From Escherichia coli (GTDB taxonomy: Bacteria; Pseudomonadota; Gammaproteobacteria; Enterobacterales; Enterobacteriaceae), in the NCBI RefSeq assembly GCF_024298765.1, contig NZ_CP101210.1: 64,000 nt of DNA, one strand, 5' to 3'. The notes below the pieces were generated by a model. That model did not search any database and had not been told where the DNA came from. It saw nothing but the letters and a program-made list of their open reading frames with translations. The position numbers and the translations under genes were made by a program. Shown piece by piece: positions 5,965 through 6,250 of this stretch; position 1 is the first letter of the stretch, and each line of letters begins with the position of its first letter.

Positions 5965-6120
5965 CTCTGCATTTCCTCCTTACCGATAAATATCAGCCGT
6001 CATTAATCTGTTGAATAATGGTGGCTGGCGAGTCGACATACATTTTCAGGGCTCCCTGATTTTTCCATTCTCATGACATATTCGTGATCGACACTGCACT
6101 TTTTTCAGTCCTTAACTTAA

Positions 6121-6141
6121 AAATGAAACATTGTTTTATTT
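6121..6141. promoter_or_regulatory. Candidate KdgR operator 1 in the kduI promoter
   Basis: AAATGAAACATTGTTTTATTT, near-palindrome matching the KdgR box pattern (AATGAAACA / TGTTTCATT). Confidence 0.55.
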
Positions 6142-6185
6142 TTAATTGAAAACCCTATCCCGTGGGCATATCATCCCCTTATAGA

Positions 6186-6216
6186 GAAAACGAAACAGTG
6201 TTTCACTATCGTTTTC
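6186..6216. promoter_or_regulatory. Candidate KdgR operator 2 / inverted repeat just upstream of kduI
   Basis: GAAAACGAAACAGTGTTTCACTATCGTTTTC: core GAAACA-G-TGTTTC palindrome flanked by 8-bp inverted arms. Confidence 0.5.
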
Positions 6217-6250
6217 TATTTTCACGCTTCACTGATTATCGGAGGTTGAT

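Follow-up and report, generated by a model that had tools for sequence, protein, structure and literature searches.

Two KdgR-type operator candidates flank a predicted kduI-kduD promoter in Escherichia coli

The yqeF-kduI intergenic region

The DNA analysed here, referred to as the window, is a stretch of 64,000 nucleotides of the Escherichia coli chromosome, and its segment 5900-6400 is matched in 5418 of 5426 complete E. coli genomes. A spacer of 286 bp separates the thiolase gene yqeF from kduI, and kduD starts 29 nt downstream of kduI. The genes and sites at the locus are:

3299-4528, minus strand: yqeG (profile matches and RefSeq annotation)
4780-5964: yqeF, thiolase (profile matches and RefSeq annotation)
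6046-6059, plus strand: terminator-like hairpin TCAGGGCTCCCTGA, with a T-run to 6064, about 80 nt past the yqeF stop codon
6083-6098: conserved CRP-like element CGTGATCGACACTGCA, centred at about -90.5 from the predicted start
6121-6141: box 1, KdgR/PlaR-type operator candidate AAATGAAACATTGTTTTATTT, centre 6131, 1 mismatch, 25.7 bits
6146-6151 and 6169-6174, plus strand: sigma-70 promoter-like element, -35 TTGAAA, 17-nt spacer, -10 TATCAT
6181, plus strand: predicted transcription start, 7 nt past the -10 hexamer
6185-6193 and 6209-6217, plus strand: arms AGAAAACGA and TCGTTTTCT of an outer 9-bp perfect inverted repeat, centre 6201, around box 2
6188-6208: box 2, KdgR/PlaR-type operator candidate AAACGAAACAGTGTTTCACTA, centre 6198, 3 mismatches, 20.2 bits
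6241-6245 and 6251-6253, plus strand: kduI Shine-Dalgarno sequence GGAGG and GTG start codon, both conserved in the alignment
6251-7087, plus strand: kduI, 5-dehydro-4-deoxy-D-glucuronate isomerase (NCBIfam NF002091, E = 4.6e-137; RefSeq)
7117-7878, plus strand: kduD, 2-dehydro-3-deoxy-D-gluconate 5-dehydrogenase (NCBIfam NF006528, E = 2.7e-167)
Further local genes: araE, ygeA and lysR (profile matches and RefSeq annotation)

Since a terminator-like hairpin and T-run lie between yqeF and kduI, kduI probably forms its own transcription unit, separate from that of yqeF. The promoter-like element matches at 10 of 12 positions in our scan, and identical kduI hexamers appear in a promoter list obtained by SELEX with the RNA polymerase sigma-70 holoenzyme (PMC3946193). 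The literature we searched held no mapped kduI start site, and position 6181 is our prediction from the -10 hexamer. Boxes 1 and 2 lie on either side of the TTGAAA-17-TATCAT element, with box 1 ending 4 bp before the -35 hexamer. Relative to the predicted start, box 1 would span approximately -60 to -40 and box 2 approximately +8 to +28, i.e., within the transcribed leader. Both candidates are located at the predicted promoter of a gene for pectin, hexuronate and KDG catabolism and adjoin the predicted polymerase site.

We found no KdgR box for kduD itself; the best consensus match across 6251-7120 has 8-9 mismatches. The kduD 'promoter' fragment studied by Rothe et al. (2013) corresponds to positions 6712-7160 of the window and was hexuronate-inducible (PMC3578941), yet 6251-7120 lacks a KdgR-like box.

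Two 21-bp boxes and their conservation

The KdgR consensus AAATGAAACAnTGTTTCATTT is a 21-bp imperfect palindrome, which PMC5559549 attributes to Rodionov et al. (2000 and 2004). The initial annotation had placed two KdgR-type palindromes in front of kduI, between 6100 and 6250, and the strings it quoted are present there, at 6121-6141 and 6186-6216. A search allowing up to three mismatches to AAATGAAACAnTGTTTCATTT returned exactly two sites in 64 kb, box 1 with one mismatch and box 2 with three, against 0.04 sites expected from shuffles of the window; the third-closest 21-mer has six mismatches. To allow for the AT-richness of the spacer (31-32% G+C over 6050-6199), we repeated the shuffle control on the spacer alone, and 0 of 5000 dinucleotide shuffles contained a match at this threshold. 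Rodionov et al. in 2004 and Murray and Conway in 2005 reportedly predicted KdgR sites upstream of kduI.

As a second measure we built a symmetric matrix from five K-12 (MG1655) sites, those of kdgK, kdgT, eda, ygjV and tabA, with kduI excluded. A scan with a KdgR matrix had been named as a check in the initial annotation, and ours ranks box 1 first (25.7 bits) and box 2 second (20.2 bits) in the 64 kb, ahead of a third site at 16.2 bits. Approximately 0.005 sites scoring at least as high as box 2 are expected per 64 kb. Leave-one-out scores of the five training sites range from 16.7 to 25.0 bits; both kduI boxes fall within or above this range, and box 2 outscores two of the accepted training sites. 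Both boxes are imperfect 21-bp palindromes that match AAATGAAACAnTGTTTCATTT.

Two further matches in the window lie away from kduI. The third-ranked matrix site, TTATAAACCGACGTTATATAT at 19146-19166, is intergenic, and an ORF of 72 aa on the minus strand (18887-19105) begins about 40 nt downstream of it; the match probably reflects chance in AT-rich DNA. The KdgR core match GAAACATTGTTTT at 27552-27564, with one mismatch, was rejected as a chance occurrence, as it lies inside a long ORF (27221-27628) and its flanks fail to match, the 21-mer having seven mismatches.

For the cross-species comparison we collected the kduI locus of 80 species-level genomes and kept 78, so that 79 sequences were scored (the window and 78 other Enterobacteriaceae). 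The last locus in the set (L081) was left out because its upstream region has no detectable -35 element or box. The second excluded locus (L002, positions 1-540) was rejected as a chimeric or contaminated contig, labelled a Deltaproteobacteria metagenome bin: its kduI is 99% identical to that of E. coli, a junction lies about 20 nt before the kduI start, and the upstream DNA matches 0 of 5426 E. coli genomes.

The alignment consists of conserved blocks between variable spacers, namely CGTGATC..CA (6083-6098), box 1, the -35 and -10 hexamers, box 2, GGAGG and the start codon. Across the 78 species the -35 hexamer TTGAAA is invariant and the -10 hexamer reads TAnnAT. With the two rejected loci excluded, box 1 scores at least 17.9 bits in 79/79 sequences, and its centre always lies 15 bp before the -35 start. 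The orthologous position of box 2 is likewise fixed, every species scored having it 51-54 bp downstream of the start of the -35 hexamer, and its scores are more variable: the median is 13.4 bits, 46 of the 79 sequences reach at least 12 bits and the minimum is -5.9, with a background maximum of 6.4. The strongest box 2 among the 79 sequences is that of E. coli. The box 2 dyad is nevertheless maintained in register, as 75% of the alignment cells pair, versus 38-50% when the partner is slid. At orthologous kduI promoters, box 1 is thus conserved in every sequence scored and box 2 exceeds background in most. Two boxes exist at this locus, far beyond chance expectation, placed around promoter-like hexamers and conserved.

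The centres of the two boxes are 67 bp apart in E. coli, about 6.4 helical turns, and 66-69 bp apart across species. Since this is a non-integral number of turns, independent occupancy of the boxes appears more likely than looping. The anchoring of each box to a promoter element explains the constant spacing and likewise favours independent occupancy.

Within E. coli, the boxes of K-12 and of the window are identical, and every difference between the two sequences lies outside the boxes and hexamers. Box 1 is unchanged in five E. coli alleles. About 1050 of the 5418 matching E. coli genomes are only 90-95% identical to the window over 6112-6220. In a common divergent allele, represented by strain JJ2434, box 2 reads AAACGAAACAGTGTTTTATTA, the change being ...GTGTTTTATTATTG... 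at the window equivalent of 6204-6210; one consensus match is gained and one lost, so that the site still has three mismatches.

A third KdgR-like box, TTGAAAACnnnTTTCA, occurs in many genera (Kluyvera, Pseudocitrobacter, Trabulsiella, Kosakonia and others; loci L006, L007, L016, L036, L053, L070 and about 25 more), where it overlaps the -35 hexamer and the promoter spacer. Its centre lies 8 bp after the -35 start (approximately 6144-6164 in window coordinates) and 23 bp from box 1, and it scores up to 14.9 bits. The E. coli sequence at this position has a degenerate right half and scores -1.6 bits.

The remaining conserved block, at 6083-6098, is a candidate CRP site, a prediction that draws on its conservation and on one paper. 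In the kduI upstream regions of the 78 species, CGTGATC and the closing CA hardly vary. Compared with TGTGA-N6-TCACA, the element has four mismatches, with a good left half (CGTGA) and a poor right half (CTGCA). It is therefore missing from a CRP scan allowing three mismatches, which gave 181 matches in the window versus 215 expected, i.e., no excess over chance. A paper of 2021 lists kduI among the genes activated by Crp and validated by gel shift, and Crp binding to the kduI promoter is thus published (PMC8085971).

The inverted repeat around box 2

The second string quoted in the initial annotation, the 31-mer GAAAACGAAACAGTGTTTCACTATCGTTTTC at 6186-6216, had been described as one extended palindrome. 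We find instead two dyads that overlap without sharing a centre. The inner one, GAAACAGTGTTTC, has its centre at 6198, as does box 2, whereas the outer 9-bp inverted repeat is centred on 6201. A perfect inverted repeat of this length occurs in a fraction of about 0.025 (2.5%) of spacer shuffles. The outer arms are disrupted in the Escherichia clades L003-L005 and are not conserved column by column; they do not belong to the KdgR box. The different centres, the lack of joint conservation and the disruption in these clades rule out a single 31-bp palindromic operator.

Close to the 5' terminus of the predicted mRNA, the outer arms could pair into a hairpin, and the predicted kduI leader RNA of E. 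coli, folded alone, reaches -16.7 kcal/mol (z = -2.6). Most species have some downstream segment with which the left flank of box 2 can pair. By column-wise counts, outer-arm pairing amounts to 52.6%, versus 40-47% in slid controls, and the same counts reveal covariation in neither the inner nor the outer pairing of the kduI leader alignment. RNAalifold found no consensus structure in this alignment, and Rfam returned nothing credible for the kduI leader, only one spurious sub-threshold microRNA match. A structured RNA element in the kduI leader is therefore unsupported by Rfam, RNAalifold or covariation, in an alignment that is not structure-aware.

These data bear on how the two boxes share the work. 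It is unlikely, in our view, that box 1 alone is a working operator and that box 2 is weak, vestigial or kept for another reason such as a 5' mRNA hairpin. Such a division of roles would agree with the universal presence of box 1 next to the wide scatter of box 2 scores, with the position of E. coli box 2 inside an inverted repeat that folds well as RNA and with the pairing capacity of its left flank in most species. It is harder to reconcile with the score of E. coli box 2 above two accepted sites, with its fixed distance from the -35 hexamer in all species, with its in-register symmetry, and with the JJ2434 allele, in which the number of consensus matches is kept. The hairpin itself is without covariation support, and its outer arms are lost in sister Escherichia clades. 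In a minority of genera the matrix derived from E. coli finds box 2 weak or absent, and its contribution may therefore be small in some lineages. Because it is much less conserved than box 1, an equal share of both operators should not be assumed.

We regard it as quite unlikely that the boxes are non-redundant, with box 2 tuned for PlaR, so that two repressors would have to be released, or acting at the RNA level on kduI mRNA. The form of box 2 found in most genera, AAACGGAAC-N3-GTTTCGTT, is a conserved and symmetric variant with C/G in place of T/A at +/-7.

Regulation by KdgR and PlaR and comparison with known operators

Published genetics connect both repressors to these genes. The kduD mRNA increases upon deletion of either kdgR or plaR (Shimada et al., 2019; PMC6958661), and a strain that lacks kdgR over-expresses kduI and kduD (Sastry et al., 2019; PMC6892915). 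A kduI promoter fragment, which maps to positions 5927-6283 of the window, responded to galacturonate or glucuronate with 7- to 54-fold induction (Rothe et al., 2013; PMC3578941). PlaR (YiaJ) is an IclR-family paralogue of KdgR, and kduI is among its ten high-affinity genomic SELEX targets (PMC6958661). The kduI probe was gel-shifted by PlaR at micromolar protein (PMC6958661); the probe primers map to 5859-6270 of the window (412 bp), so both boxes lie inside the probe. Our literature search for ChIP, DAP-seq and gel shift data found no report of direct binding of E. coli KdgR to either box.

Because PlaR shifts the two-box fragment and represses kduD, KdgR is not the sole candidate occupant. 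Taken further, this would make the boxes mainly PlaR operators and the effect of KdgR on kduI-kduD only indirect. In vitro binding to the two-box fragment is published for PlaR alone, by genomic SELEX peak and gel shift, and the PlaR box ATnTGAAACnnnGTTCAnTT is nearly the same motif as the KdgR box (PMC6958661). In addition, kdgR and plaR influence each other's mRNA levels (PMC6958661), so effects of a kdgR deletion could in principle be partly indirect. We nevertheless judge a mainly PlaR-based control to be very unlikely, considering that loss of kdgR derepresses kduD as loss of plaR does and also raises kduI, and that the scores of the kduI boxes resemble those of the kdgK and kdgT operators, kdgK and kdgT being treated as known KdgR targets in PMC6958661 and PMC6892915. 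The kdgT and tabA sites are closer to the kduI boxes than is the strongest PlaR site, plaR-yiaK ATTTGAAATCAAGTTTCGCAT, and the PlaR gel shifts needed micromolar protein. That the palindromes are chance products of an AT-rich spacer, bound nonspecifically by nucleoid proteins such as H-NS, is effectively refuted by the composition-matched shuffles and by box positions conserved in 78 species while neighbouring bases vary, despite the low G+C content and an H-NS flag for the kduI region in the SELEX promoter table (PMC3946193).

We consider it highly probable that the yqeF-kduI spacer carries a kduI-kduD promoter between two KdgR-type operators, which KdgR, and very probably PlaR, binds to block polymerase. 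The initial annotation had suggested dual-operator repression of kduI-kduD; sequence, position, conservation in 78 species and published genetics support the assignment of both boxes as KdgR-type operators. In the absence of inducer, one KdgR dimer would sit on box 1, the expected place of action of an upstream activator and of the polymerase alpha subunit, and a second dimer would occupy box 2, within the initially transcribed region. Acting jointly, the two dimers may sterically block polymerase binding or promoter escape. The inducer of KdgR is 2-keto-3-deoxygluconate (KDG). When hexuronates or pectin fragments are converted to KDG, KdgR would leave the DNA and the promoter would fire, probably assisted by the conserved CRP-like site about 90 bp upstream. 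PlaR very probably occupies the same boxes.

KdgR boxes of kduI-kduD are already described: PMC6958661 treats kduI-kduD as bearing such boxes, and derepression in kdgR mutants is published. Our analysis confirms the membership of kduI-kduD in the KdgR (and PlaR) regulon. This is ordinary gene regulation and mainly a matter of correct annotation. The base-level coordinates of the promoter, the two operators and the probable CRP site could guide the design of reporters and the engineering of hexuronate and pectin utilisation.

The closest relatives of the kduI boxes are the operators of the kdg regulon, i.e., those of E. coli kdgK, kdgT and eda, the predicted ones of ygjV and tabA, and those of the pectinolysis genes of Dickeya dadantii, which have a common 21-bp imperfect palindrome. 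The kduI boxes share with them the TGAAAC-N3-GTTT[C/T]A core with A/T-rich flanks, and they are alike in pathway, in their promoter-proximal position and in derepression without kdgR. The right half of box 1, GTTTTA, is common to the kdgK, kdgT and tabA sites. PlaR's own strongest site, at plaR-yiaK, has the half-sites TGAAAT and GTTTCG, unlike the kduI boxes. What sets kduI apart is the pair of boxes flanking the promoter, whereas the other K-12 upstream regions scanned have one site each at the thresholds used; the exception is ygjV, with a second, weaker 9-of-12 core match beside its site.

Two-site repression is also known from the aceBAK operon, where one IclR site adjoins or overlaps the core promoter and a second is located elsewhere in the promoter region. 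Both systems are of the IclR-family type, and they differ in motif, effector and geometry. The gal operators OE and OI form a promoter-flanking pair that represses by DNA looping. As predicted for kduI, the two gal operators straddle the start site; in contrast to gal, the 66-69 bp spacing at kduI is out of phase, and there is no sign of looping. The typical distance between tandem IclR-family sites is 18-22 bp (PMC8222616), whereas the kduI boxes lie 67 bp apart on opposite sides of the promoter.
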